Sequence record: OP172790
DNA: 64,000 nt
Strand: one strand, 5' to 3'
Source of the DNA: Escherichia phage ECO319P1
Part shown: positions 929-33,816 of the stretch, in pieces
How the letters are laid out: each line of letters begins with the position of its first letter
Position numbering within the stretch: position 1 is the first letter of the stretch
Program-made: the position numbers and the translations under genes
The notes under the pieces: generated by a model
Seen by the model: the letters and a program-made list of their open reading frames with translations, nothing else
Database searches by the model: none
Told to the model about the DNA's origin: nothing

Positions 929-958
929 TTGACAGTGTGAAACAAGCTAGGTTAGAAT
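929..958 (+). promoter_or_regulatory. sigma70-like early promoter candidate
   Basis: TTGACA (929-934), 18 bp spacer, TAGAAT (953-958); upstream of the first plus-strand genes. Confidence 0.5.
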
Positions 959-1011
959 GAGCATCAAGTTAACAGAACAACGTTAACGAGTGAGAGACAA
1001 GAAATTATCTC

Positions 1012-1034
1012 TTATTATAATGTGCAATAATTAC
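1012..1034 (-). promoter_or_regulatory. phage promoter element TAATTATTGCACATTATAATAAG, inverted copy firing leftward
   Basis: reverse complement of 1012-1034 is identical to the element at 40331-40353. Confidence 0.5.
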
Positions 1035-1045
1035 GGGGTAACAGT

Positions 1046-1153
1046 ATGGTTACTTACAGCAATGAATTAACGTCTAAACAGATGTTAAAATCAGCCAACA
1101 AATTTTGGTTGATTGTAGGGTTGACAGTCGCCGCATTGATTGTTATCCTGTAA
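1046..1153 (+). CDS. small hydrophobic peptide (35 aa), hypothetical
   Basis: ATG 1046, stop 1151-1153, predicted TM segment FWLIVGLTVAALIVIL; not in ORF track (under 60 aa). Confidence 0.25.
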   Translation: MVTYSNELTSKQMLKSANKFWLIVGLTVAALIVIL

Positions 1154-1775
1154 GCACAAATTGAGGCGTAGTCACTGCCTCGCTGGTTACTAAGCTGCCA
1201 GTATAATTCGCGGGTCTTTAAACACTTGATTGTGTACCTGTGTATCTGGATTGGTGGAGTATAAAGGCAAATAGTACGCCGCAAATCATCGCGGTAAAGT
1301 CTGCTCAATAGTGTTAGCATGGCGGCTAGTATTGCGTCACTGGTGAAACTCCAGCTAGTGTTAACATATGACTATAAACAAAACAGTGCTGAGGCTGGCT
1401 GTGAGCAAATAGGGCAAAACATCGCCTAACATCCGAGCGTTTCCATTCTCACTTTGAGTTGTGAGACTGACAAGGCGTAGACCTGTCGGGGCGTTCCCAG
1501 CAATACGGGAAAATATGGGGCAAGAGTTTTACGCTTGCAGTTTAAGCGGTTCTCTTGTGTCAATGGTGAGAGGTTTTTGACTCACTAACGACAAACTAAA
1601 AACATGGCGATAAGTTAACAGGTTGATTGAGACTCCGTATACAATAAAGCTCCGCCATTGCCCTACTTGCTAGGGGTCAGAAATAACGGCAAGGATGTTT
1701 GAGTTATGCAATTAGTTAGGCGGCTGTTACATACTAACGATTGCATAGCCCGTCAAACATTAACGAGGAATAGTT

Positions 1776-2120
1776 ATGAGTAAGAAACGTGCAATCGGTC
1801 GCATGATTCATAACGGTGTACAAATTAACAAGATTGTTACGCCGAACATGGTTAAGGCAATCAAACGCCGTGAAAACCTTGTTAAAGAATTGAATACGGT
1901 TATTGACAATGTTGATAAACGTTTCACCTTTGAGCAAGTGATGCGAGCTAAAACGGCTCTGCGTAAATTGTATGCTCAAAGTCATGCGCTTGATGAAAAG
2001 CCACTGACTAACAATAAAGATAGTTGGTGTGCGAAAGGCAAGCGTTACGCAACTGGTAAACAAAAAGCTAAACGTTTACCGTCACAACCACGCGTTGAAT
2101 TTTCACGCAAATCTAAATAA
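1776..2120 (+). CDS. hypothetical basic early protein
   Basis: ORF with AGGAA RBS upstream; Lys/Arg-rich. Confidence 0.5.
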   Translation: MSKKRAIGRMIHNGVQINKIVTPNMVKAIKRRENLVKELNTVIDNVDKRFTFEQVMRAKTALRKLYAQSHALDEKPLTNNKDSWCAKGKRYATGKQKAKRLPSQPRVEFSRKSK

Positions 2121-2147
2121 CTTTTTCATACAATCGAGGATTATCAA

Positions 2148-2735
2148 ATGACTACTATCTCTACTTCTGCTCTGGTTCGCGGTCAGTCTAACATCAACAA
2201 CGCTTTTGCTGCACTGACTGGCAAACGCTCTGAAATCATCGCAGAAACTAACCTGCTGCTGGTATCTTCCATCGTTCACGCTCACGAACATGGTGATGTT
2301 ACTGTCCTGAATGCGTGGGCTACTGCTTTCCCTGCTAAATCCACAAGCAACGCGCAAGTAATGGCATTCATCAAGAAATTTGCGCCTGCAAAATGGGTGA
2401 AAGCTGATGGTGCGTTCAAGCTGGATAAAAACAACCGCGTAGCTGAGGGCTTCACTGAGTCCGAGTTAGGCCAACTGCTGCTGTCCTCCTCTTATCATGA
2501 CTTCATGAAAGAGAAGAAAGAGAAAACCGAAAAGGTTTACAACGCCGACCTGATGGCGTGGAATGCTGTTAAATCTCTGGAAGCGTCATTCGAAAAACAG
2601 GGCGTAGCTCTGAGTGCTGAGGCACTGGCACACCTGAACGCTTTCAAAGAAGCGGTTAAACGTGGTGCGGTTGACTTTACTCTGGCTGAGTCTGAGAAGG
2701 CTAACCGTGAGAAAGCTCTGAAGAAATTCGCTTAA
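2148..2735 (+). CDS. hypothetical early protein
   Basis: 195 aa ORF, GAGGA RBS, codon usage typical of expressed genes. Confidence 0.6.
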   Translation: MTTISTSALVRGQSNINNAFAALTGKRSEIIAETNLLLVSSIVHAHEHGDVTVLNAWATAFPAKSTSNAQVMAFIKKFAPAKWVKADGAFKLDKNNRVAEGFTESELGQLLLSSSYHDFMKEKKEKTEKVYNADLMAWNAVKSLEASFEKQGVALSAEALAHLNAFKEAVKRGAVDFTLAESEKANREKALKKFA

Positions 2736-2762
2736 TCTTACAGTGTAATCATCAAGCTCGTG

Positions 2763-2774
2763 ACTACGGTGACG
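2763..2774 (+). repeat. copy 1 of over-represented 12-mer ACTACGGTGACG (intergenic)
   Basis: exact match. Confidence 0.9.
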
Positions 2775-2802
2775 GGCTTTATTGGTAGCATTGGAGGATT
2801 CG

Positions 2803-3180
2803 ATGGCACGACTGACTAAGGCGCAACGTTCTGAACTGCGTCACGTTCGCAATGAAGCATTCAAACGTAACAATATCAAAGGCGCTCAATCTCGCCACCC
2901 TGATAAACCTGTCACTGAGTATAAGCGACGGGCTAATTGTGTACGTCTGGAAAGCGACAAGGCACGACGTCCAGATAAAAGTAACGTTGTCTTTGGTGAT
3001 GTTGAGCCGCCGTCTGAAAAGCCAGACACTAACATTGAATCATTCCGCAACGCTTTCAGTGATAAGCTGGCAGCATTGGGTTGGACTCGTGACGATTGGG
3101 CTTTGTGGAAGCAAGCACGTAACGATAATCCGTCTTTAACTTTGCACGACTATAGAGAATCATTAAAGGTATCAAAATGA
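2803..3180 (+). CDS. hypothetical protein
   Basis: start moved to ATG 2803 preceded by GGAGGA; track ORF began at an upstream TTG. Confidence 0.5.
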   Translation: MARLTKAQRSELRHVRNEAFKRNNIKGAQSRHPDKPVTEYKRRANCVRLESDKARRPDKSNVVFGDVEPPSEKPDTNIESFRNAFSDKLAALGWTRDDWALWKQARNDNPSLTLHDYRESLKVSK

Positions 3181-3359
3181 GTAAGGCCGCACACATTGGC
3201 ATGACTGAGAGCGCACTAGACCGCCGTGAACGTCTGCTTAACGCTTACACCAAACCTAAGCGCCCTGTGAGTGAGAACGTTCGCATCAACAACGAAAACC
3301 AATACACGACTCGTAAAGAGTACGCCACCAAAAATCAAGCGTTCGGTGCTGTATGGTAA
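3177..3359 (+). CDS. hypothetical small protein
   Basis: ATGA overlap with upstream gene. Confidence 0.4.
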   Translation: MSKAAHIGMTESALDRRERLLNAYTKPKRPVSENVRINNENQYTTRKEYATKNQAFGAVW

Positions 3360-3502
3360 ACTATAACGTTGGTCATTTTGATACAGAGAAAATGTCTCTG
3401 AAAGAATTTGTCGCCTATTGCAAGGCGCAAGACTCAATCCACACCTGCCCGACTCGTGAAGTTGCTGAGTTAGGCGCAATCATTGAGGCGTTAGGTTACT
3501 AA
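3353..3502 (+). CDS. hypothetical small protein (49 aa)
   Basis: ATG overlapping upstream stop; under 60 aa. Confidence 0.3.
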   Translation: MVNYNVGHFDTEKMSLKEFVAYCKAQDSIHTCPTREVAELGAIIEALGY

Positions 3503-3621
3503 TGGCTACTCGTAATTCAGAAGTTACTACGGTGACGGCTCGCGTGGTGTCTGGTGTGCTGTCGTTGTCTGCATTCGGTGCGTTCTTTGGTCTGCTGATT
3601 GGTGGATTCATTGGACTTTGA
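3502..3621 (+). CDS. small single-TM membrane peptide (39 aa)
   Basis: hydrophobic C-terminal half; contains 12-mer copy 2. Confidence 0.3.
   Translation: MATRNSEVTTVTARVVSGVLSLSAFGAFFGLLIGGFIGL
3526..3537 (+). repeat. copy 2 of 12-mer ACTACGGTGACG
   Basis: exact match, read as T-T-V-T. Confidence 0.9.
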
Positions 3622-3801
3622 CAAGCATATAAAGCTCGCTGATTTGATGCACGAATCGACGGGCTTTGCTCATTGTGTCGTGCAGCGTGGTGGCGAGTTG
3701 AAAGTGATTGAACATCGTCGTCATAAAAATAAACCTGTACACGGTGTTGTGTACTCGTCTAAACTTGGCAAGGAGAAGCGGGAATTTTTGAGAGGTAAAT
3801 A

Positions 3802-4062
3802 ATGGCGGCTGGTTATCTTGGTGGTGACTGTGTACAAGCGCAGATTGACGCGACTATTGACAGCGCGATTGATTTTGCACGTTCGCAGATTAGCAAAGGT
3901 GAGTCGTTAGAATTTTGTGCGGATTGTGATGAAGAAATTCCAGAGGCTAGACGTAAGATTATTACTGGCTGCCGTTACTGCGTTCTTTGTCAATCCAAAC
4001 ACGACCAAAAGGTTAGCTCTGGCTATAATCGTCGGGGTTCAAAGGATAGTCAAATAAGGTGA
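3802..4062 (+). CDS. TraR/DksA-type C4 zinc-finger protein (probable RNAP-binding regulator)
   Basis: CADC...(x17)...CRYC spacing typical of the DksA/TraR zinc finger. Confidence 0.55.
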   Translation: MAAGYLGGDCVQAQIDATIDSAIDFARSQISKGESLEFCADCDEEIPEARRKIITGCRYCVLCQSKHDQKVSSGYNRRGSKDSQIR

Positions 4063-4283
4063 ACGAAATGCGTATTCCATTACCGTATTATCTCGAAGAG
4101 AAAGAAATTACAGACATTGAGGACTTGAAAGGTACTCGTGTTCTGTACCGTTACCACCGTCAAAGCCGTAAAGTATACGGTAAAATTGACCAATTTTCTT
4201 TCAAAACGGGTAAGGCTTATGTGCTGTGGGAAGATGGTAAACAGCAATGGGTTTGTGCTGTATCTCTTGAGGTAATCGTATGA
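4059..4283 (+). CDS. hypothetical protein
   Basis: ORF overlapping upstream stop. Confidence 0.4.
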   Translation: MNEMRIPLPYYLEEKEITDIEDLKGTRVLYRYHRQSRKVYGKIDQFSFKTGKAYVLWEDGKQQWVCAVSLEVIV

Positions 4284-4687
4284 AGAAGCAATTTGTTAAG
4301 TCAATGTTAATCGCATTGACTATCGCCGGTTGTCACCCTGTACCAGCCAGTGCGTCCCCATTAAAGGGAGAGATGCGCGAGATGGCTCTTGAGTTGTGCG
4401 CTAAGTCTGTCGCTGCTAATGACCTGATGCTTGAGTGCATCGAAATGGTGAGCAGTGACTACTATGACGCCGCCATGCAGGGTGGTCAACGTGTGCTTGA
4501 CAAGCGCATTCCCTCTGACAACGAGATTGTGGCTATCACTCGCCAACATCTTGACTGTGATGTTGCTAGTCCAATCTGTCAGCAAACGCAATACAACTAC
4601 ATGACGTGGTTCAAGTATGGAGCCATGTCTATTATGGACAACGACAAAGAGTTTAAGAGCGAAGTTAAAGCTTATTACTCTGAATGA
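4280..4687 (+). CDS. putative lipoprotein (early)
   Basis: N-terminal signal with lipobox LTIAGC; Cys-rich mature part. Confidence 0.5.
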   Translation: MKKQFVKSMLIALTIAGCHPVPASASPLKGEMREMALELCAKSVAANDLMLECIEMVSSDYYDAAMQGGQRVLDKRIPSDNEIVAITRQHLDCDVASPICQQTQYNYMTWFKYGAMSIMDNDKEFKSEVKAYYSE

Positions 4688-4703
4688 TAGAAGGTAATAC
4701 AAG

Positions 4704-5138
4704 ATGAAGTTCTCGCCTGAAATGTATGAGGCTTACCAAACTATCAAACCAATGATGATGGATTTGTATCCGCTTGCTATGAAGCCGAACGACCCATTGC
4801 CATTGACGATTGAAGCTCAACAGAAAATGCAGACCGACCCATACATTCGTTTCAGTGATAACGAGTTGGCTTGGTTCTTTACTATCTGGCTGGCTCGCCG
4901 TGAGTACACTATGAACATCTGCCGCTTGCAAAAGCTGTATGATGAAAATGGTGTTGAAGTTTGTGATGTTCCTCATGAAGTTCTTGCTGACCGTGCGTAC
5001 CATCTAGCCAGATTCACCCGTACATTGGATATGTCCAATCGTACATGGAAAAGGTTAAAAGCAAAGGCACATGGCTACAGTAAACAGACAACAGGTAAAG
5101 ATGATTTCAACCCTTGGGGCAGACGAAGCGACGTGTGA
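4704..5138 (+). CDS. hypothetical protein
   Basis: 144 aa ORF. Confidence 0.45.
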   Translation: MKFSPEMYEAYQTIKPMMMDLYPLAMKPNDPLPLTIEAQQKMQTDPYIRFSDNELAWFFTIWLARREYTMNICRLQKLYDENGVEVCDVPHEVLADRAYHLARFTRTLDMSNRTWKRLKAKAHGYSKQTTGKDDFNPWGRRSDV

Positions 5139-5362
5139 CCGTTACGAACGTCTAAGCCAACGCCGCTATGAGCGTCGAATCTCTGAGAATTTGGAGAAGC
5201 GATTGCTTGAAGCGGCTAAAGATAGTGTTGATAAGTCGAAAGCCAATGTTATTAATGGGAGTCGTTGGTAATGATTGACCGTAAAGGTTTTGGTATTCGT
5301 ATGCCTGATGGTTCTATCTTCTGGTTCCACAATTCTAATCCACGAGCTAAAAAGGTGTAGTC

Positions 5363-5659
5363 ATGGATATCGTAATGCAAGAGTACGAGGACGCTCTAGT
5401 TACCATGCAGTTAGCGGTAACGGCTGAACAGATAAATGCACGTATGGACAAGCGTATGTCCAAACCTAATCGCGCATTAACAGCCTGCATTAATGAAGTG
5501 TTGAAGCGCATCACCTCTGACCAAGTTCGTCGTGTGATGATTGGTATATCTTTTCAGGGGCAGCCAGTAGCAGGTCTTACAAAGACTGTGCGTGAGTATC
5601 TGGAAGTCAAGGCTAAGATTGAACGCGATGGATATGTGATTTTAAAAATGAAGGATTAA
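5363..5659 (+). CDS. hypothetical protein
   Basis: 98 aa ORF. Confidence 0.45.
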   Translation: MDIVMQEYEDALVTMQLAVTAEQINARMDKRMSKPNRALTACINEVLKRITSDQVRRVMIGISFQGQPVAGLTKTVREYLEVKAKIERDGYVILKMKD

Positions 5660-5662
5660 CTT

Positions 5663-6163
5663 ATGTTAGCTTCTGATGTGCCATTCAACACTGTAATAAT
5701 TAAAATGGGTGAGAAGATTAAGAATGCGAACAATCGCCACCTTGTCTTTGATTTTACTGTCGCCCAATTTCAGCGTCTCTTTGTCCGTGGCACCTGTGCT
5801 TACAGTGATAAAGAGTTTCAGAGTACGTCTGATATGACTATTGAACGTCTCGACCCACTAATCGGTTACGTGCATGGTAACTGTGTACTCGTGTGTAACA
5901 GGCTGAATCAGTTACGCAAGCCAATTGATGAATTCCTCAAAGACGTTCGCGTTGACGACGAGGATAAGATTCGCATGTTAGAGCTTGCACTGAAGACTGT
6001 TAAACGTCGAGTCGTTGAAGCTGGTCGTGCTGAACAAGAAGCTATCATGGCTAAACAAATCCGAGCGTCTAACCTCGCTGCGATGGCGAATGATATGAAG
6101 CGTAAGCGCTTTACTACGGTGACGCCCGCCAATGGAGAGTCCCCAAATGAATCATCATGCTGA
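5663..6163 (+). CDS. hypothetical protein with degenerate HNH-like motif
   Basis: segment YVHGNCVLVCNRLNQLRK resembles the distal half of an HNH motif; first His not evident. Confidence 0.4.
   Translation: MLASDVPFNTVIIKMGEKIKNANNRHLVFDFTVAQFQRLFVRGTCAYSDKEFQSTSDMTIERLDPLIGYVHGNCVLVCNRLNQLRKPIDEFLKDVRVDDEDKIRMLELALKTVKRRVVEAGRAEQEAIMAKQIRASNLAAMANDMKRKRFTTVTPANGESPNESSC
6113..6124 (+). repeat. copy 3 of 12-mer ACTACGGTGACG
   Basis: exact match, read as T-T-V-T. Confidence 0.9.
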
Positions 6164-6383
6164 ACTGCATAACGCAACGCTGTATAAACATGACGGTGGT
6201 GCATGGCTTGAAGGTCGTATTTATAACGACACCCATACCCACGGCAATCATCCGTTCCGTGATGGTACTCCAGTCACCACAACTAATGTGAGTGATGAAG
6301 TTCTGGATGGTGGCAACACCTATATGATTACCCGCAACACGACTTATAAAATGGTCGGTGTGGTTCGTGAGGTGGAGTTATGA
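6132..6383 (+). CDS. hypothetical protein
   Basis: 83 aa ORF, start uncertain. Confidence 0.35.
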   Translation: MESPQMNHHAELHNATLYKHDGGAWLEGRIYNDTHTHGNHPFRDGTPVTTTNVSDEVLDGGNTYMITRNTTYKMVGVVREVEL

Positions 6384-7267
6384 TTAAGCTGCTGCTTAAC
6401 AATGTGGAAATGCACTTGAATCGTAAGCGTTTCCCTGATATGGCCACCGGTATTGAAATCGTTGGTCAAGTTCCTGCCCGTGTTGAAGTGGCAACTATTG
6501 ACGCCCGCTTTGATGGAGTTGCAAGCCCAAATGACATGCTCTTTGACATTGCGCAAGCGGTTGATGTGGTGCGCTCTATTAACAGTACTGCGGTTATTCG
6601 TCTGTTTATTCCGTATCTCCCATACGCAAGACAAGACCGCCGCATGACCAAGCATGACGCTTTCAGTTTGAAAGTGTTCGGTAACCTGTTGAATTCATTG
6701 AAGATTAACACAATCATGTGCTTCGATGCTCATTCAGATGTTGCCGCAGGTATCATTGATAACCTGACTGTGATTGGTCAAGACCGAATCATGGGCATCA
6801 GTGAAGTCAGTCACGCATTGACTGTCAACGACCCGCTGATTGTTGCGCCTGATATGGGTGCTGTGAAGAAGATTCACAAAGTCTGTGCGAGCCTTAACCG
6901 TGCTGATTCACCGATTGTCATGGACAAAGAGCGTGAGCCGTCAACTGGTAAGATTGGTAATCATAAGATTATCTTTGGTACTGAGCGTGTTGATGGTCGT
7001 AACTGCTTGATTGTAGACGACATTTGTGATGGTGGTCGTACATTCATTAGCGCAGCGACTGAGTTAAAAGCTGCTGGGGCTGCAACAGTTAGTCTGTATG
7101 TAACTCACGGCATCTTCTCTCAGGGCATTGACGCTCTGTTAGGTGGTGGTATTGATAAAGTATTCACCACTGACTCTTTAATCGACACTGGAACTCTGGC
7201 ATCTGAAAAGGTGCGTGTGTTTAAGTGTAACGATATTCTTTCTGCCTTTTCGATGGGACGTATCTAA
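6380..7267 (+). CDS. adps: PRPP-synthetase-family kinase; candidate ADP-ribose pyrophosphokinase (Adps-like)
   Basis: Prs motifs PYARQDRR, DAHS and PRPP-binding loop LIVDDICDGGRTF; GAGGTGGAG RBS. Confidence 0.75.
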   Translation: MIKLLLNNVEMHLNRKRFPDMATGIEIVGQVPARVEVATIDARFDGVASPNDMLFDIAQAVDVVRSINSTAVIRLFIPYLPYARQDRRMTKHDAFSLKVFGNLLNSLKINTIMCFDAHSDVAAGIIDNLTVIGQDRIMGISEVSHALTVNDPLIVAPDMGAVKKIHKVCASLNRADSPIVMDKEREPSTGKIGNHKIIFGTERVDGRNCLIVDDICDGGRTFISAATELKAAGAATVSLYVTHGIFSQGIDALLGGGIDKVFTTDSLIDTGTLASEKVRVFKCNDILSAFSMGRI

Positions 7268-8932
7268 ATGAAACTGAATCCTCTGTTTGCTGTTGATGGT
7301 TATAAGTTCTCTCATGGCCCGGCCTATCCGAAAGGCACTAACAAGCTGTATGATGTGTTCACACCTCGCAGCGATAAGTATTTCAACAGTCCGTTCTTTA
7401 AGAACTTGGACATTCGTAGCCCGCTGATTTGGGTTGGTATGCAAACCTTCATTCAGCATTGGTTAGTGGACGAGTTCAATGAGAGCTTCTTCAAAGCTGA
7501 TAAAGGTGCTGCTGTTGCCGAATTCAAGGAATTCCTTGATGCTTACTTCGGCGCAGATGCTGTATCTACAGATAACATCGCTGGTCTTCATGACCTTGGT
7601 TATCTGCCACTTGTAATCAAGACGATTCCTGAAGGTTGCAATGTGGATATGAAGGTTGCGACCTGCACCTTCGTCAACACCCATGACGACTTCGCATGGC
7701 TGGTTGGCTATCTCGAAACTTTGGTCAGTGCTGAACTGTGGCCTGCTGCAACTGCTGCCACTATCGCAATGAACTACAAGGCAATCGGCACCTATTGGGC
7801 TGAACTGACTTGTGAAACCAAAGACCACCTGCTGTGGCAATTCCACGACTTCAGTGCTCGTGGTGACATGGGCATGTGGGCTTGTAGCTTAGTTGGCCTC
7901 GGTCACTTAGCATCTTTCCGTGGTACTGACTCGGTGTTCGCACTGAAACGTACAATGACGCACTATGCTGTGCCTAATGTTCCTGCGACTGGCTACCTGT
8001 ACGGTGGTTCTGTTCCGGCAACTGAGCACTCAGTAATGTGCATGGGAGAAAAAGTAAGTGAACTCGAAACGTTCTCGCGGCTCATTCAAGAAGTATATCC
8101 AACGGGAATCGTCAGTATTGTCTCGGACACATGGGATTACTGGAAGGTTATCACCGAATTCCTCCCGACCCTTGCTGACACGATTAATGAACGTGACGGC
8201 AAAGTGGTCATTCGTCCAGATTCTGGTGACCCTATTGATATCATTTGTGGACGCCTATTTACTGACCTGAATGGTTGTGAACATCTGGGTCATGTACAGA
8301 CTGTGCTCATGTCAAAACCGGGTGCTGTTGGTCTGTACAAAGGAACCTATTATGAGTTCAAACGTGCAAGCGAAGAACTTGTAGTTGTGCCTGAGCATGT
8401 AGTTGCTGGCTCAATCGAAATGATGTGGCGTACCTTTGGTGGCACCATCAATAAGAAAGGCTTCAAGGTTCTGAATCCGAAGATTGGCCTGATTTATGGT
8501 GATTCAATCACTATGGAACGTGCCGAAGAAATCTTTGCTCGCCTCGCCGCGAAGGATTTCGCATCTTCAAACGTTGTGCTGGGCATCGGTTCATACACTT
8601 ATCAGTATGTGACCCGTGACACCTTCGGCTTCGCCATGAAAGCAACTTATGGTGAAGTAGACGGCGTTGGTCGTGAAATCTTTAAAGACCCTGCGACTGA
8701 CGATGGCACTAAGAAGTCCGCCAAAGGTCTGCTGAAACACGCATTCATTGATGGCGTATGGACTCAGACAGACATGGCATCTGCTCGTGAAGAACAAGAC
8801 ACTGAGCTGTTGACAGTGTTCCGCGACGGTGTTGCATATCCACATTGCGACATTGAAGTTGTTCGTCAGCGTGTAGACGCTCTGGTCGATGGTCTGGTTT
8901 ACTATCGCATGAAGAAGGAAGGACTGATTTAA
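7268..8932 (+). CDS. namat: Nampt-family phosphoribosyltransferase; candidate nicotinamide ADP-ribose transferase (Namat-like)
   Basis: N-terminus LFAVDGYKFSHG typical of nicotinamide phosphoribosyltransferases; 554 aa; immediately follows the Prs-like gene. Confidence 0.75.
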   Translation: MKLNPLFAVDGYKFSHGPAYPKGTNKLYDVFTPRSDKYFNSPFFKNLDIRSPLIWVGMQTFIQHWLVDEFNESFFKADKGAAVAEFKEFLDAYFGADAVSTDNIAGLHDLGYLPLVIKTIPEGCNVDMKVATCTFVNTHDDFAWLVGYLETLVSAELWPAATAATIAMNYKAIGTYWAELTCETKDHLLWQFHDFSARGDMGMWACSLVGLGHLASFRGTDSVFALKRTMTHYAVPNVPATGYLYGGSVPATEHSVMCMGEKVSELETFSRLIQEVYPTGIVSIVSDTWDYWKVITEFLPTLADTINERDGKVVIRPDSGDPIDIICGRLFTDLNGCEHLGHVQTVLMSKPGAVGLYKGTYYEFKRASEELVVVPEHVVAGSIEMMWRTFGGTINKKGFKVLNPKIGLIYGDSITMERAEEIFARLAAKDFASSNVVLGIGSYTYQYVTRDTFGFAMKATYGEVDGVGREIFKDPATDDGTKKSAKGLLKHAFIDGVWTQTDMASAREEQDTELLTVFRDGVAYPHCDIEVVRQRVDALVDGLVYYRMKKEGLI

Positions 8933-9126
8933 TGTTCGAAGCCTTAAAGAAATTCTTTAACTGGCTTGACACAAAGACAGCAGACCGTGTGTTTGCTGTT
9001 CTCTTTGCTGTCTTCGCTGTCCTTGACTTGAGCAAAGGTCATTATTGGTCTGCATTGTTCGATGTAGTCCTGATGTTACTGAGCATCTGGTCACTCAAAC
9101 GCAAACTCGCTAAAGGTAAAAACTAA
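8932..9126 (+). CDS. small two-TM membrane protein (holin-like topology)
   Basis: two hydrophobic segments and charged C-terminus KRKLAKGKN. Confidence 0.4.
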   Translation: MFEALKKFFNWLDTKTADRVFAVLFAVFAVLDLSKGHYWSALFDVVLMLLSIWSLKRKLAKGKN

Positions 9127-10053
9127 ATGGAACATATCGCACTGTTCGGTGTGCTCGCTGTTGTACTCGTTCTGAGTATCGGCATTGACTTCTTTGGTCA
9201 CAAAGATGGTCACGAAATGTCGTTCAAAGAGAGTGCCATGTGGTCTCTGTTCTGGATTGCAATGGGCATTGGTGTTGGCGGCTTCATCTGGTTTGACTAC
9301 GGTGACGTTGCCGCTAGTGAGTACTTCGCTGGCTACGCAATGGAAAAGGCTCTGTCAATCGACAACCTGATGGTGTTCATGGCAATCTTTACGTTCTTCG
9401 GAATTAAAGATAGCGCTCGTGAGCATAAGATTCTGTTGTGGGGTATCGCTGGTGCATTGGTATTCCGTGGCATCTTTGTTGCTGCTGGTTCTGCCTTGTT
9501 CCATCTGTGGTGGCCTATTCAGGTATTCTTCGGTCTGGTCGTAATCTGGTCGGCTCGTGGCATCCTTGGTGGTGGAGATGATGATGAAGAAGTGGACTTT
9601 AGCCAGAAATGGTTTGTACGTGCAATCAAGAAGTTCTATCCTGTTAGCACTGACAATACAACTTCTAAGTTTTTCACTCGCATCGGCGGTCGTCGCGCTG
9701 TTACTGTTATGTTCCTGTGCTTGGTCACTATTGAACTGTGTGACGTCATGTTCTCGTTCGATAGCGTACCGGCTGTTATCGGCGTAACCAAAGAGCCTGC
9801 ACTTATCTACGCAGCCATGATTATGGCAGTGCTGGGTTTACGTGCTCTGTTCTTCGTGTTAGGTTCACTGATGAAGCACCTGACCCGTCTCGACTTCTTT
9901 GTTGCGATTGTTCTGGTGTTTGTTGGTGTCAAACTTATCGCGGCTCCGTTCGGCTATGAGATGGACGCTATTAGTAGTCTGTGTGTAGTCCTCGGATTGC
10001 TGGGCGCTGGTGTGGTAACATCTCTGGCTTTCCCAAAGCGTGAAAGTTACTAA
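9127..10053 (+). CDS. terC: TerC-family integral membrane protein
   Basis: multi-TM with EKALSIDNLMVFMAIF signature; contains 12-mer copy 4. Confidence 0.7.
   Translation: MEHIALFGVLAVVLVLSIGIDFFGHKDGHEMSFKESAMWSLFWIAMGIGVGGFIWFDYGDVAASEYFAGYAMEKALSIDNLMVFMAIFTFFGIKDSAREHKILLWGIAGALVFRGIFVAAGSALFHLWWPIQVFFGLVVIWSARGILGGGDDDEEVDFSQKWFVRAIKKFYPVSTDNTTSKFFTRIGGRRAVTVMFLCLVTIELCDVMFSFDSVPAVIGVTKEPALIYAAMIMAVLGLRALFFVLGSLMKHLTRLDFFVAIVLVFVGVKLIAAPFGYEMDAISSLCVVLGLLGAGVVTSLAFPKRESY
9296..9307 (+). repeat. copy 4 of 12-mer ACTACGGTGACG
   Basis: exact match, read as D-Y-G-D. Confidence 0.9.
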
Positions 10054-10110
10054 GTAATATCTTCGGAGTCGCTCAATGAGCGGCTTCTATAGGTGTTTCT
10101 TGGAGGTCAT

Positions 10111-10317
10111 ATGAAATATATGTTATTGATTCTTATAGCTTTTAATTGTTATGGGTATCAAACTGACGAAACTGATATGCTGTTCAGTGCTGAGGATTAT
10201 GCACAAGAGCGTCATGTTCAGCGAGTTAAGCCTCACAAAGAAGACAAGAAAGTTATTGTTGTAACTCAAGAGGAACTCGACCGAGTCCTCAAATCAACCA
10301 AAGAAGGAAGTAAATAA
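10111..10317 (+). CDS. small secreted or membrane protein
   Basis: start at ATG 10111 after GGAGGT RBS; N-terminal hydrophobic segment. Confidence 0.45.
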   Translation: MKYMLLILIAFNCYGYQTDETDMLFSAEDYAQERHVQRVKPHKEDKKVIVVTQEELDRVLKSTKEGSK

Positions 10318-10892
10318 TGGCTGTTGTTCTCCGTAAAAACGCATCCCTGAACCTGTCCAAATCTGTAGCGGCTCTGACCACTTACCGTTTCGGCCTGTCT
10401 TGGGACGAAAGCGCTGACCTCGATGCTGTTGCAATGGTTGTTGATGAAAACGGTAAGCTGTTCCCGCCTGTTGAAAACAACATGGCATACTACGGCAACT
10501 GCACCGCTAACAAATTCGGCAATGCTGAAAACCCTGTTCCAGGTCTGACTCACTCCGGTGATGCTCGTGACGGCTCTGCTGCTGGCGACGACGAAACCAT
10601 CGTTATCGACACCACTAAGCTTCAGAAAGACCGCATCATCATTGCTGTAACCTCTTACAGTGAAAATGGCCCGGTTCCGTTCGCTGCTTCCGTTAATCCG
10701 GTTGCTAAACTGTACGACGACAAAGGCAATGTACTGGTCGAAGTTAAGCTGGACGAAAACGTTGCATTCAGCACCGCTGTTGAGTTCGTAGAGATTGCGA
10801 AAGTTAATGGCGACTGGACTGTAACCAACCTGACCAACCCGGCTGGTAACTCCGAAAACGGCCTGACCGACCTGCTGGCTGCACGTAGCTAA
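10317..10892 (+). CDS. terD: TerD-family protein
   Basis: GLSWDESADLDA and HSGDARDG...GDDE motifs align with E. coli TerD as recalled; length 191 aa. Confidence 0.75.
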   Translation: MAVVLRKNASLNLSKSVAALTTYRFGLSWDESADLDAVAMVVDENGKLFPPVENNMAYYGNCTANKFGNAENPVPGLTHSGDARDGSAAGDDETIVIDTTKLQKDRIIIAVTSYSENGPVPFAASVNPVAKLYDDKGNVLVEVKLDENVAFSTAVEFVEIAKVNGDWTVTNLTNPAGNSENGLTDLLAARS

Positions 10893-11154
10893 TGTGGGGC
10901 AGCGGTCGCAGGGCTAACAGCATGTCCAAAGGGCGTGTTGGGCATACTTCGATTCGCAGACCCTCAACTGGTACTGAAACCCCGTTCGGACAACTCCGGG
11001 CGGGTGACTTCTTTACCCACAACGGGCGTCTGTTCTTAAAGACCAACCTGATTGATGCTGTTGAAGTCCCTGACGGGTCTGACGCAATGATAGGGACTAA
11101 TCAGTTCTCTGAAGAGTTCTTAGTTCAGGTTGAAAATGTGGTAATCCACATCCA

Positions 11155-11180
11155 ATAATTATTGCACATTATTATAAGGA
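11155..11180 (+). promoter_or_regulatory. phage promoter element (TAATTATTGCACATTATTATAAGGAG)
   Basis: one of five copies of the conserved element; directly upstream of a gene. Confidence 0.5.
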
Positions 11181-11187
11181 GTATCTC

Positions 11188-11283
11188 ATGCAACTTCCTA
11201 CTGGATTCATAGTGCTCCTTGTTATCTTGTATACACTGAATGCACTGCAACAAGAAGGATATCTTTCATGGCTCTCATTCTGA
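11188..11283 (+). CDS. small hydrophobic leader peptide (31 aa)
   Basis: strong AAGGAG RBS straight after the promoter element; overlaps the start of the following TerD-family gene. Confidence 0.3.
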   Translation: MQLPTGFIVLLVILYTLNALQQEGYLSWLSF

Positions 11284-11927
11284 AGAAGAACCAATCCACT
11301 GACCTCGTATCTGATAAAGGTACTCCGGTTCTGAACCTCACTGTTGGTGCTAATTGGGGTATGATTAGCAAAACTGGTGATAGCAAAGCGGCTGGCTTCT
11401 TCAACCGTATGGCATCTGCTCTGGGTGCTGGAGATACAGTGAAAACCGCTGTTGACCTTGACCTGTCAATGGTCTTCGCTAACGCCAAAGGCGAACTGGT
11501 AGACATGTGCTACTACGGCAATAAGCGTCTGTTCAGTGGTGCAGTTCTGCACTCTGGTGACGACCTCGTTGGTGACGACGAGCAGAACGAAGATGATAAC
11601 GAACTGATTAAGTTCGAAGGCATGAAGGTTCCGTTCGATGTTACCACTGTGTACGTTGTACTGAACTCCTTCCGCCATCAGATGTTCGATGAAATCCCAT
11701 ACATCGGCATCTCTTTCTACGAAGGTCTGGTGAACAAGGGCTCCAAAGGTCTGCGATTCGCTGAGGCTCGTGTTGAGAAAGAGAAAGAAGCTGCTGGCAA
11801 AGAGTGCTGCATCCTCGCTAAGATTGTCCGTACTGGCAAAGGCTGGAACGTGACTCCGCTGTTCGACTACACCTCGGACACCAATCTGCGCGACCTTGCT
11901 CGCACTGCAATTCGTAAGCACGGCTAA
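11268..11927 (+). CDS. TerD-family paralog
   Basis: VDLDLS and HSGDDLVGDDE motifs. Confidence 0.65.
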   Translation: MALILKKNQSTDLVSDKGTPVLNLTVGANWGMISKTGDSKAAGFFNRMASALGAGDTVKTAVDLDLSMVFANAKGELVDMCYYGNKRLFSGAVLHSGDDLVGDDEQNEDDNELIKFEGMKVPFDVTTVYVVLNSFRHQMFDEIPYIGISFYEGLVNKGSKGLRFAEARVEKEKEAAGKECCILAKIVRTGKGWNVTPLFDYTSDTNLRDLARTAIRKHG

Positions 11928-11986
11928 TCGTGCCAAGCCCACTTTAGGATAGAGGTGGGCAACAACTATAAGGAGAGTAATCCCCG

Positions 11987-12412
11987 ATGAGTTGGTTTAT
12001 GTGCTGGTTAGCACTAACTCTTAACATTTACACGGAGGCAGGTGGAGAGGGTGAGCAAGGTATGAGGATGATTGCTGATGTAGCGGTCACTCGTACTACG
12101 CACAAAGATTACCCAGATAACATTAGCAAAGTTATTCTTCAACCGGGTCAATTTTCTTGGACTTATAACTTAAAGTCGAGGTCTGAGAAAGGATTAGTTG
12201 CTTATAATAAGCGTCTCTTAAAGTCTAAGAGAATGACTAATCCAAAAGAAAGAGAAGCATATGCCATAGCGATGAAAGTCGCGTACAGAGCTTTACAGCC
12301 GGGGTATAAACCCAAGTACAGGTATACTCACTTCTACAGTGGGACAGACAAGCCCAAGTGGGCTAAAAACAAACGTGCCGTCAAACACGGCAACCATTAC
12401 TTTATCAAATAA
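11987..12412 (+). CDS. SleB-like cell wall hydrolase
   Basis: NIYTEAGGEGEQG...VAVTRTTH...QPGQFSW pattern of the Hydrolase_2 family; no signal peptide. Confidence 0.55.
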   Translation: MSWFMCWLALTLNIYTEAGGEGEQGMRMIADVAVTRTTHKDYPDNISKVILQPGQFSWTYNLKSRSEKGLVAYNKRLLKSKRMTNPKEREAYAIAMKVAYRALQPGYKPKYRYTHFYSGTDKPKWAKNKRAVKHGNHYFIK

Positions 12413-12421
12413 GGATTCACA

Positions 12422-12634
12422 ATGTTCTCCTCCAACAAACCAACCTTCTCCTCGGCAATGAAGATGTTCACCAAAGCTCAGGAAGAACTGAAAGCTGCTG
12501 GTGAAGTGAATGCTGCCGAACTGGCAGAAGCCGAAGCCGCTGTAGCTGCTGCGAAAGAAGAACGTGATAACATCAATCGCGTTACCTCTTTCTTCGACAA
12601 CCTGCTGGGTAAAGGCCCGGAGTTGACTAAGTAA
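12422..12634 (+). CDS. hypothetical Ala-rich small protein
   Basis: 70 aa ORF. Confidence 0.4.
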   Translation: MFSSNKPTFSSAMKMFTKAQEELKAAGEVNAAELAEAEAAVAAAKEERDNINRVTSFFDNLLGKGPELTK

Positions 12635-13182
12635 TGCGTAAAGTTGCAATCATTGGAGCCTGTATCGGCTCCTTGTTCCTTCTGAGTGGTTGTGATGATA
12701 ACACTTCCAAGCTGACCGCTGACCAACAGTTCCAACTGAAACAGATGGAAATGCAGCAAGCTGAGAAGATGCGCAACCAACGTCATGAGTTGGAAATGGC
12801 TCGTGCCATGAATCCTGCTCCTGTTATTCAATCTGAGACTCGCTATGTTGAGTCAGAGCCACAGGTGATTTACCGCGATGTTCCAGCACAACCTGCACCT
12901 CAACCCCATTCTGTCAGCCCTGATAGCTATGGGTACAGTAGCAGCAATAGTGATTCTGGGAGCGGTATTGGCTCACACGTCGCAACGGCAGCCGTAGGTG
13001 CTGCTGCTGGCTATTATGCTGGCAAGTACACCTCAACGCCGAAAGGCCAGCAACAAGTACAGACGATGAAGTCTAAGACTAAATCAATGTACGACACTGG
13101 TAAGAAGAAAGCCTACACAGGCTATCGCTTTACCAAAAGCAAAACAACCTCAGCGTATCGCTCATTCAAGAAACGAAAGTAA
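12634..13182 (+). CDS. lipoprotein with Gly/Ala-zipper segment
   Basis: lipobox LLSGC; Pro-rich linker; basic C-terminus. Confidence 0.5.
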   Translation: MRKVAIIGACIGSLFLLSGCDDNTSKLTADQQFQLKQMEMQQAEKMRNQRHELEMARAMNPAPVIQSETRYVESEPQVIYRDVPAQPAPQPHSVSPDSYGYSSSNSDSGSGIGSHVATAAVGAAAGYYAGKYTSTPKGQQQVQTMKSKTKSMYDTGKKKAYTGYRFTKSKTTSAYRSFKKRK

Positions 13183-13194
13183 CGGAGATTCAAC

Positions 13195-13563
13195 ATGAAC
13201 CTGATTGAAGTACTGAAAGACCAACTGGATAAAGAAGGCGCGATTCTGGACAACGCAAAGCGTGACGATAAAAACGTTCGTGCTGCGATTCAAGTCTCGA
13301 AAGAGATTCGTAAAGTGCTGGCTGAAAACATTCGCGGCATCAAAGCGCAGATTAAAGAGTCTGACCGTGCATCGAATGGTGCTAAGTCAAGCCTGCTGCG
13401 TCGCTCTCTGGCGTTCTTCCGTGAACAGTACAACGACCTGTTCGAAGAAATCTACATGCTTCGTGCTCAGAAGGGCATGATTACTTCCTATCTGAAAACT
13501 CAGACGGAACTGGTTGTGTCGCTGGATGCCGAATGGGAGAAAGCGAAACGTGAAGCTCAGTAA
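13195..13563 (+). CDS. hypothetical coiled-coil protein
   Basis: 122 aa charged helical ORF. Confidence 0.45.
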   Translation: MNLIEVLKDQLDKEGAILDNAKRDDKNVRAAIQVSKEIRKVLAENIRGIKAQIKESDRASNGAKSSLLRRSLAFFREQYNDLFEEIYMLRAQKGMITSYLKTQTELVVSLDAEWEKAKREAQ

Positions 13564-33276: not shown

Positions 33277-33429
33277 TGATTGTTCGTAACCGATTGACTG
33301 GTCAATTCGAAAATGCCACTTTCAAAGATGGCTGTTGGGGTTTCCATGAAACTGACGTACAAGAAGGGCTGCCTGATTGCAGCACTGAAGAACAAAGAAG
33401 TGGAAGCGATAGCTCACCAAGCTAATTGC
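33277..33429 (+). CDS. small upstream ORF (50 aa) overlapping the macro gene start
   Basis: strong GGAGG RBS 5 nt upstream of ATG 33277; different frame from macro gene. Confidence 0.3.
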
Positions 33430-33816
33430 TTTTGCACCATGAAGTCTGGCATAGCACCACAGATTGCTAATGCTTGGCCTCAAGTCCGTGAAGTCGATAA
33501 GTTGACTAACTACGGTGACAAGGATAAGATGGGTTCATACTCACTTGCCACTGTTCCCGAAGGTTTTGTGTTCAACATCTATGGTCAATACCATTGGAAT
33601 CGGAGAAACGCTGGTTATGGCACTTCTTATGAGCATCTTGGGATGGGGCTGTCTAGCGTCGCTGACTTTATGGTTAATCATAAGGTTCAAACTTTGGGTC
33701 TGCCTCGAATTGGTTGTGGACTTGCTGGAGGCGATTGGGGGATTGTAGAACACCTAATCAAACACCACTTTGCACACACCGACATTGAAGTAATTGTCTA
33801 CGAACTGGAGAAGTAA
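33346..33816 (+). CDS. macro domain protein
   Basis: KLTYKKGCLIAALKNKEVEAIAHQAN aligns with the macro N-terminal G...AN motif; start placed at ATG 33346. Confidence 0.65.
   Translation: MKLTYKKGCLIAALKNKEVEAIAHQANCFCTMKSGIAPQIANAWPQVREVDKLTNYGDKDKMGSYSLATVPEGFVFNIYGQYHWNRRNAGYGTSYEHLGMGLSSVADFMVNHKVQTLGLPRIGCGLAGGDWGIVEHLIKHHFAHTDIEVIVYELEK

Follow-up and report, generated by a model that had tools for sequence, protein, structure and literature searches.

The sequence of Escherichia phage ECO319P1 (record OP172790; 64,000 nucleotides, the whole of which is called the window below) raises the question of what a TerC-family membrane protein and two TerD-family proteins are doing in a virulent phage. 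Since the 1990s, the ter operon of bacteria has been associated with resistance to tellurite and colicins and with the inhibition of phages, and it has no accepted mechanism. An earlier note on this DNA, made from the letters alone, had pointed out the three genes, designated here TerC, TerD1, and TerD2, and had suggested as their role either membrane or ion homeostasis or participation in one pathway together with the enzymes on either side. Our analysis indicates that the three proteins correspond by type to the bacterial unit terZCD. We tentatively propose, as a reading that falls a little short of probable, that they form a self-sufficient Ter membrane unit, which would be made early in infection, control divalent cations, and harden the infected cell against superinfecting phages and pore-forming agents.

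Over its full length, the DNA of the window is 92.1% identical to that of Cronobacter phage vB_CsaP_GAP52 (GAP52) and 90.8% identical to that of phage A24, both of which belong to Crifsvirus (Grimontviridae), in the “7-11 subgroup” of prolate podoviruses. On this comparison, the window is assigned to Crifsvirus as an isolate separate from GAP52 and A24. The virulent-phage context is supported, and the paper on Privateer, a Proteus phage of the Grimontviridae, describes the role of its Ter proteins as experimentally unknown (PMC7881722). All gene calls of the earlier note between 8932 and 13563 were reproduced, and its descriptions of a peptide with two transmembrane (TM) segments, a SleB-like hydrolase, a lipoprotein, and a coiled-coil protein fit the translations. 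The flanks are also as it had described them: upstream are Prs, a genuine phosphoribosyl pyrophosphate (PRPP) synthetase, and then Nampt, and downstream are a phiEco32-type COOH-NH2 ligase (PF14395) and an Amidoligase_2 protein (PF12224). The positions of all features are given in Table 1.

The earlier note had proposed that its family assignments be checked with profile hidden Markov models, and this check upheld them. TerC matched PF03741 with an E-value of 1.6e-40 (139 bits, against a cut-off of 27.8) and TIGR03718, the NCBIfam model of the TerC/Alx subfamily, with 297 bits (cut-off, 246). Its hydropathy profile contains nine hydrophobic segments, and residues E73, K74, S77, D79, N80, E203, D206, D212, S213, and P215 are invariant in phage and plasmid TerC proteins; both of the repeated acidic intramembrane motifs of the family are thus present in the phage protein. 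With the canonical IncHI2 ter locus as the bacterial reference for typing, TerC was 42% identical to the plasmid TerC, and it was 54% identical to the TerC of Escherichia phage phAPEC8. Its protein identity to GAP52 and A24 was 91–99%, with a ratio of nonsynonymous to synonymous substitution rates (dN/dS) of 0.11 versus A24.

The two TerD-family proteins matched PF02342 (cut-off, 25.3 bits) with E-values of 8e-21 (TerD1, 74.8 bits) and 1.6e-13 (TerD2, 51 bits), and phmmer searches matched both to the solved TerD structures 2kxt and 3ibz; TerD1 aligned with 2kxt from end to end (E = 3.7e-11). For TerD2, the AlphaFold2 model is a beta-sandwich with a disordered loop (pLDDT, 86.6), and the top Foldseek matches of this model were the TerD-family structures 9a6r_B, 3ibz, and 2kxt, each with a probability of 1.00. 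We used the motif DxD plus GDxxxG...D[DN]E as the criterion for the TerD Ca2+ site. The conserved pattern in the 15 TerD-family proteins of phages and plasmids that were aligned was DLD followed by H-x-GD...G...D-[DN]-E, and D34, D36, H79, G81, D82, G86, D91, and E93 were invariant in 15 of 15. In the 2kxt study, these residues are reported to be the metal ligands. TerD1 retains the DLD motif and the motif GDARDGSAAGDDE, and TerD2-type proteins carry a 3-residue insert and have DNE in place of DDE.

The two paralogs differ in type. The best IncHI2 match of TerD1 was TerE (30% identity, E = 3e-19). The best match of TerD2 was TerZ (26%, E = 9e-13), with TerD and TerE reaching only approximately 1e-5; its bacterial relatives carry the name TerZ, and it clusters with TerZ in a neighbor-joining tree. 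TerD2 also contains an insertion, a flexible loop rich in Gly, Ala, and Phe at residues ∼36–56, and it has a Gly-rich loop insertion in common with TerZ. By these comparisons, TerD2 is classified as TerZ-type. The significance of this assignment lies in the genetics reported by Peng et al. (2022; PMC8779313), in which terC plus terD (or terE) formed the core of tellurite resistance and was toxic alone, the addition of terZ or terA restored growth, and terZCD was the minimal healthy, fully resistant unit. The window encodes one protein each of the TerC, TerD/E, and TerZ types, and the phage set is thus equated with terZCD by type. When all the IncHI2 Ter proteins were compared with the 64-kb window by tblastn, matches were obtained only at the TerC, TerD1, and TerD2 genes; no TerA, TerB, TerF, TerW, TerX, TerY, or TelA was found in it, nor any Ter-type PRTase, ATP-grasp, HpcH, or StiP protein. 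According to the account of Whelan et al. (1995) given in PMC12054061, insertions in terZ, terC, or terD of plasmid R478 abolish phage inhibition and colicin resistance, whereas insertions in terE or terF do not.

We examined how these genes are maintained and where their relatives occur. Versus GAP52 and A24, dN/dS of the three genes ranged from 0 to 0.11 (TerD1, 0–0.03 at 98–100% protein identity; TerD2, 0.04–0.05 at 96–99%), indicating strong purifying selection, and these values are lower than those of the neighboring hydrolase (0.2) and coiled-coil protein (0.3). The earlier note had held that absence of the region from all close relatives, without a phenotype, would speak against its reading; in our survey, Ter genes were retained in GAP52, A24, BUCT695, and Privateer. 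The ordered trio TerC-TerD1-TerD2 occurs in Crifsvirus, in Libingvirus BUCT695, and in a 74-kb metagenomic relative, and it also occurs on an unrelated backbone, that of Ounavirinae-like Pectobacterium phages (myoviruses) and related contigs, with no Prs or Nampt nearby. In Privateervirus, the trio is split, and TerD2 lies directly after Nampt, ∼4 kb from TerC and TerD1. Among phage records searched by tblastn, TerC had matches in 176 and TerD1 in 42; Nampt occurs in 2018 phage records. The closest 50–120 database relatives of TerD1 and TerC were all on phage-sized or short contigs, and the named ones were phages, apart from a few short contigs with bacterial labels that resemble contamination; bacterial proteins appeared only below ∼45% identity. 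The TerD1 and TerC clades therefore seem to be confined almost entirely to phage-sized contigs. The Ter proteins were 26–42% identical to plasmid Ter proteins, versus 37–76% among phages of different hosts, and the guanine-plus-cytosine (GC) content of the genes equals that of their flanks. A recent capture from the host was rejected on these two grounds and because ter is rare in Cronobacter.

A second line of comparison came from marine phages. In Vibrio phages D93 and 1.084.O, orthologs of TerD1 (46–52% identity) and TerD2 (33–35%) and a third TerD stand directly upstream of a Na_Ca_ex antiporter, and TerC is absent. All 38 of the 38 phage records with a Na_Ca_ex exchanger were from Vibrio or Pseudoalteromonas phages, and in every exchanger lineage examined (D93, 1.084.O, J2-1, D69, and K479), soluble Ter-family proteins were found beside the exchanger. 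In J2-1, this is a TerD-like match ∼2.3 kb from the exchanger, known from its coordinates only; in D69, three divergent TerD-domain proteins flank the exchanger (27.5% identity to TerD1); and in K479-type phages, the neighbor is TerB, not TerD. Phages 1.084.O and D69 also carry a K+ channel (Ion_trans_2). On a metagenome contig, the genes stand in the row TerD, TerD, TerF-like vWA, Na_Ca_ex.

The region 8932–13563, which the earlier note had treated as one block, separates into genes of two kinds. Homologs of the 64-amino-acid (aa) peptide p64, of the hydrolase, of the 70-aa and coiled-coil proteins, and of the genes farther downstream are present in Salmonella phage 7-11, and those of the 88-aa protein p88 in Kuravirus-like coliphages. 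The lipoprotein is likewise classed with the backbone genes. Phage 7-11 keeps Prs, Nampt, the hydrolase, and the ligase cluster and has neither TerC nor TerD; other small genes fill its slot between Nampt and the hydrolase, which is thus a variable site. The homologs of p64 are 7-11 gp118 (E = 8e-7), which follows Nampt in this Ter-less phage, and a 61-aa open reading frame (ORF) of contig L013 (E = 2e-17). The relatives of p88 (dN/dS, 0.13) share 41–47% identity with it in the Kuravirus-like phages, which are reported to lack Ter proteins (PMC7881722), and an 88-aa ORF of L013 is 61% identical. Insertion of a Ter cassette as a single clean piece was rejected, because two genes of the backbone, those of p64 and p88, alternate with the Ter genes.

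The region contains two further small proteins. The 68-aa protein p68 (dN/dS, 0–0.03) had no family match and was recognizable in close relatives only; its counterpart in L013, a 65-aa ORF that also bears a signal sequence, is only weakly similar (E = 2.6e-4), and p68 may be an accessory of the Ter module. The 31-aa peptide p31 is annotated in A24 and was overlooked in the annotation of GAP52. Its substitutions were almost all synonymous (7 of 8 versus GAP52 and 6 of 6 versus A24; dN/dS, 0–0.04) and it encodes one hydrophobic helix, so it is better read as a gene for a small membrane peptide than as a regulatory leader. We considered p64, p68, and p31 as conserved Ter partners and rejected them, since sequence searches led only to close relatives or to Ter-less phages. 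The Ter-specific content is accordingly taken to be TerC, TerD1, and TerD2, to which two very small ORFs may belong as accessories, interleaved with early genes of the backbone.

As for expression, the + strand carries the genes from the left end to ∼48 kb. From Nampt to the 88-aa ORF, stop and start codons overlap or abut, except for a gap of 57 nucleotides after terC, an arrangement which suggests that the genes belong to a single early transcription unit. The three strong sigma-70-like promoters at the left end probably drive the whole early region of the + strand, and the trio lies in tightly packed genes on the same strand ∼8 kb downstream of this promoter cluster. The syntenic genes of phage 7-11 are of the early class, with long polycistronic transcripts that start at terminal sigma-70 promoters (PMC8948821). 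From this synteny and the upstream promoters on the same strand, we infer that the trio is transcribed early by the host RNA polymerase. Within the Ter region, sigma-70-like matches were below chance (5 versus 11.7 expected). The earlier note had assigned one TerD paralog a phage promoter element and a short leader ORF. The ORF exists, as p31 with its conserved peptide ahead of TerD2; the promoter part is weak. The only candidate, at 11130–11159, was the best match between positions 6 and 16 kb (10 of 12 positions), and its -10 hexamer is not conserved, GAP52 and A24 having AGTAAT instead.

Two further promoter candidates were rejected. The late promoter of this phage group has been defined experimentally as GTAAtg-N16-aCTA (PMC8948821); GTAATG-N16-ACTA gave six matches with one mismatch in the window, none of them near the Ter genes and not more than expected by chance. 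The sequence TATAAGGAG occurs twice in the 64 kb (0.21 expected), at 11173–11181 and 11967–11975 (+). Both copies lie in ribosome-binding-site contexts, before p31 and before the hydrolase, so that they bracket the p31/TerD2 pair, and two copies in such a context do not make a phage promoter motif.

A conserved two-tier RNA hairpin of -25.1 kcal/mol (z = -5.4; none of 200 shuffles was as good) starts at the terC stop codon; it had no Rfam match. Hairpins of the same shape and different sequence follow terC in L013, BUCT695, and Privateer (L013, 7355–7405; L003, 5878–5937; L004, 6530–6582); in the four Grimontviridae lineages, the energies were -22 to -27 kcal/mol and the z-scores -2.6 to -5.8, and the inner stems of distant lineages are unrelated in sequence. 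In four alignable relatives, 20 pairs were predicted, with one compensatory change, several one-sided changes, and no broken pair in the inner stem. The hairpin lacks a U-run and is therefore not a canonical terminator; a role in mRNA processing, stability, or translation tuning is our guess. In a search for RNA families over the whole window, neither a Mn riboswitch nor any other riboswitch, metal-sensing element, or known RNA reached the gathering score, and only a sub-threshold AsxR match was obtained (E = 0.23). Separately, a GC-rich, terminator-like hairpin with a T-rich tail was observed at 10981–11004 (+), inside the conserved 88-aa ORF and ahead of TerD2.

Table 1. Features of the Ter region of the ECO319P1 window and of the Ter modules located in other phage sequences.
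Sequence	Feature	Position	Strand	Remarks
Window	Three strong sigma-70-like promoters	929-1149	+	11/12, 10/12, and 10/12 matches; AT-rich left end (GC 37%)
Window	Prs	6380-7267		Protein 72% identical to GAP52 and A24
Window	Nampt	7268-8932		Protein 95% identical to GAP52 and A24
Window	p64, 64-aa two-TM peptide	8932-9126	+	Two hydrophobic segments; backbone gene, not Ter-specific
Window	TerC	9127-10053	+	308 aa; predicted inner-membrane protein, membrane core of the module
Window	Two-tier RNA hairpin	10050-10103	+	From the terC stop codon to the ribosome-binding site of the next gene
Window	p68, 68-aa protein	10111-10317	+	Signal-peptide-like N-terminus; stop overlaps TerD1 start
Window	TerD1	10317-10892	+	191 aa; TerD-type; predicted cytosolic beta-sandwich; Ca2+-site motif kept
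Window	p88, 88-aa protein (phrog_22099)	10892-11158	+	Between TerD1 and TerD2; not Ter-specific
Window	Candidate sigma-70-like promoter	11130-11159	+	TTGAAA-N18-AATAAT; upstream of p31 and TerD2; weak
Window	p31, 31-aa single-TM peptide	11188-11283	+	MQLPTGFIVLLVILYTLNALQQEGYLSWLSF; AAGGAG ribosome-binding site; 16-nt overlap with TerD2 start
Window	TerD2	11268-11927	+	219 aa; TerZ-type TerD-family protein by comparison
Window	SleB-like hydrolase	11987-12412	+	PF07486, E = 1.6e-18; 58% identical to 7-11 homolog
Window	70-aa protein	12422-12634	+	56% identical to 7-11 homolog
Window	Lipoprotein, 182 aa	12634-13182	+	Lipobox LSGC after signal sequence (from translation)
Window	Coiled-coil protein, 122 aa	13195-13563	+	24% identical to 7-11 homolog
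L009	Exchanger module	7272-10867
L010	Exchanger module	7221-11521
L021	Exchanger module	2828-8067
L020	Exchanger module	5111-7095
L019	Exchanger module	1289-5743
L011	phAPEC8 Ter set	3057-10243		HAD hydrolases, Ter-type PRTase_3, phosphatase, TerC, SprT-like protein, TelA

In the mechanism that we tentatively propose, TerC would insert in the inner membrane and move or handle Mn2+, Zn2+, and Ca2+ through its conserved intramembrane acidic site, while two cytosolic, Ca2+-binding beta-sandwich proteins would dock on it and regulate it. TerD2, as the TerZ-type paralog, would prevent the toxicity of TerC and TerD alone. The outcome would be a hardened membrane and ion state that leads to superinfection exclusion or an advantage in competition and to resistance to pore-forming agents. 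We favor this reading of a cation-handling, phage-excluding unit because of the match with terZCD, the R478 phenotypes, the larger phage plaques and higher sensitivity to Zn and Mn that follow deletion of terC in Klebsiella pneumoniae (PMC12054061), the intact motifs, the low dN/dS, the portability of the trio, the pairing of Ter proteins with exchangers, the probable early timing, and the earlier proposal of Iyer et al. (2021). A more general form, in which TerD/TerZ-type Ca2+-binding paralogs regulate either TerC or a Na+/Ca2+ exchanger as a portable cation gate and the cell thereby resists phages and pore-formers, is possible, but on balance we doubt it. The homeostasis of membrane and ions named in the earlier note was in any case a reasonable direction.

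The module might instead serve the metal housekeeping of the phage itself, by adjusting cytosolic or periplasmic Mn2+, Zn2+, or Ca2+ for enzyme metalation or by correcting the ion leakage of injection, with no part in competition. TerC-family proteins of Bacillus subtilis export Mn2+ and serve the metalation of exported enzymes (PMC10550928), Alx is described in PMC10197570 as an Escherichia coli Mn2+ exporter, and the acidic intramembrane residues are kept in the phage TerC. The Vibrio phages couple Ter-family proteins to a Na+/Ca2+ exchanger and a K+ channel, and the Jug phages have three terD genes along with a gene for a Ca2+ P-type ATPase, each of them transcribed at a high level (PMC12880540). 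However, the close relative 7-11 and thousands of other phages with Nampt replicate without the module, which makes it an accessory gene set of the kind typical of competition or defense rather than core metabolism, and the absence of a Mn riboswitch or other metal-sensing element from the matches in the window also speaks against housekeeping; we consider this explanation rather unlikely. A counter-defense or lysis-timing device, which would stabilize membrane energization against pore-forming or depolarizing abortive infection (Abi) effectors, premature holin triggering, or lysis from without, draws on the protection that the ter operon gives against pore-forming colicins (Whelan et al., 1995, as reported by citing papers). 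The Ter genes also lie in the early region and adjoin NAD+ salvage genes. NAD+ salvage counters NAD-depleting immunity. In Crifsvirus, BUCT695, L013, L015, and L016, the Ter genes have a gene for a cell-wall hydrolase or lysozyme no more than ∼2.5 kb away. This argument is purely one of context, however, the Ter genes of Privateer are not accompanied by a lysis gene, and no known anti-defense family was matched, so that we regard the explanation as improbable.

The note's other suggestion, a pathway shared with Prs, Nampt, and the amidoligases like the bacterial PRTase and ATP-grasp module, could be argued from the linkage of Prs, Nampt, and Ter in three Grimontviridae genera despite rearrangement, which includes the position of the Privateer TerD2 directly after Nampt. 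In addition, Nampt, p64, and TerC form a translationally coupled gene string, and PRTases adjoin TerC in bacterial Ter loci and in phAPEC8. Against this, the adjacency of Prs and Nampt to Ter is confined to Grimontviridae and is missing in the Ter modules of Ounavirinae-like and Vibrio phages (Arno18, L015, L016, D93, and 1.084.O), 7-11 has Prs, Nampt, and the ligases without Ter, and the records with Nampt far outnumber the 42 with TerD1. Furthermore, the Prs of the window is an ordinary PRPP synthetase and differs in kind from the PRTases of Ter systems, and, as noted above, the biosynthetic enzymes of Ter systems had no tblastn match in the window. The distribution appears to have largely refuted a shared pathway, and we consider it very improbable. 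Still less credence can be given to inert passenger DNA from a host ter operon, for which the variable slot between Nampt and the hydrolase, filled by other small genes in 7-11, might be cited: the dN/dS values, the intact motifs, the GC content, and the higher identity among phages of different hosts than to plasmid Ter proteins all contradict it, and by these selection and distribution data it is taken as refuted.

Several points weigh against the cation-handling, phage-excluding unit that we prefer. According to the Privateer paper, the role of Ter proteins in phages is untested (PMC7881722). The early timing is drawn from synteny alone. For the TerC of K. pneumoniae, heterologous expression led to the conclusion that it is not a Zn or Mn efflux pump (PMC12054061), so that ion transport by TerC of the ter-operon type is contested; the smaller plaques on ter+ hosts suggest that Ter lowers phage productivity, and its carriage could be a cost to the phage. 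Other work has put TerB forward as the core partner of TerC, and tblastn found no TerB in the window; PADLOC defense models gave no matches for any of the 10 proteins. Lastly, TerD1 showed no specific grouping with the TerD and TerE proteins of enterobacteria in the neighbor-joining tree, and the equivalence to terZCD is therefore one of type, not of orthology.

Other genes of the region yielded some observations of their own. The step in protein identity between Prs and Nampt (72% versus 95%) suggests a recombination boundary at their junction. The 122-aa protein contains no proline and 35% charged residues, and it had weak coiled-coil family matches only. Homologs of the lipoprotein were found in GAP52 and A24 only; L013 has a 172-aa ORF at the same position, which was not compared. 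The lipoprotein has a hydrophobic stretch rich in Gly and Ala, a strongly basic tail, and no family match. By analogy with Llp of phage T5, one may guess that a lipoprotein of the early region blocks a receptor and so acts in exclusion.

Phage Ter genes themselves are not a new discovery, and the novelty implied by the earlier note was overstated. The annotation of GAP52 already cites similarity to TerC, TerD, and TerZ, three ter proteins are named in the Privateer paper, and the phiKp34 paper states that such Ter subsets have been reported in virulent phages. Iyer et al. (2021) reported Ter in such phages and suggested that their Ter systems help them to compete with phages that superinfect the cell. 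Our analysis adds the distinction between Ter genes and genes of the backbone, the TerZ-type second paralog and the match with terZCD, the nearly exclusive phage clades of TerD1 and TerC, the exchange of TerC for an antiporter in marine phages, and the conserved hairpin after terC. The retention of only TerC, a TerD-type protein, and a TerZ-type protein across unrelated virulent lineages points to a working core and agrees with the bacterial genetics. The trio is a small, clonable system for studying the Ter mechanism and, if the cation-gate reading is true, the simplest available for a question that is ∼30 years old. The swap between TerC and the exchanger in marine phages hints independently that what such modules have in common is a flux of divalent cations. 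The trio may act in superinfection exclusion or protect the envelope, a possibility that also matters for cocktails of phages directed at Cronobacter, Proteus, and related pathogens.

Compared with known systems, the trio shares TerC, a TerD-type protein, a TerZ-type protein, and the metal-site motifs with the bacterial terZABCDEF operons of IncHI2 plasmid R478, E. coli O157, Klebsiella, and Proteus, at 26–42% identity. The bacterial operon, however, also contains TerA, TerB, a second TerD/E, TerF, TerW/X/Y, and biosynthetic genes, and it is stress-induced, whereas the set in the window belongs to a virulent phage. The phage TerC resembles the exporters Alx, MeeF, and MeeY in that it passes the cut-off of the subfamily model and has the paired acidic motifs, but it differs from them in being accompanied by TerD paralogs and in having no Mn riboswitch ahead of it. 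Among phages, GAP52 and A24 have the same genes in the same order, and Privateer has the same three Ter types, but in a split trio. The marine modules of Vibrio and Pseudoalteromonas phages include, in D93 and 1.084.O, TerD1 and TerD2 orthologs in the same order, but Na_Ca_ex takes the place of TerC, and these two phages have a third TerD.

Phapecoctavirus, represented by phAPEC8, combines TerC with PRTase_3, HAD phosphatases, a SprT-like protein, and TelA, whereas the window combines it with two TerD proteins. No TerD was found in a 12.8-kb stretch around the phAPEC8 TerC, and gp054–056, which we considered as divergent TerD paralogs on account of their fitting size, were rejected because they had no TerD match. 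Separately, the product of 33352–33807 (+) in the window is 39% identical to the phosphatase gp050, a neighbor of TerC in phAPEC8, and here its gene is distant from the Ter genes. Klebsiella phage phiKp34 and the Caulobacter jumbo phages have TerF vWA and TelA in addition. By gene content, with TerC and two TerD paralogs, the module of the window is thus identified as the smallest of the phage Ter systems compared.

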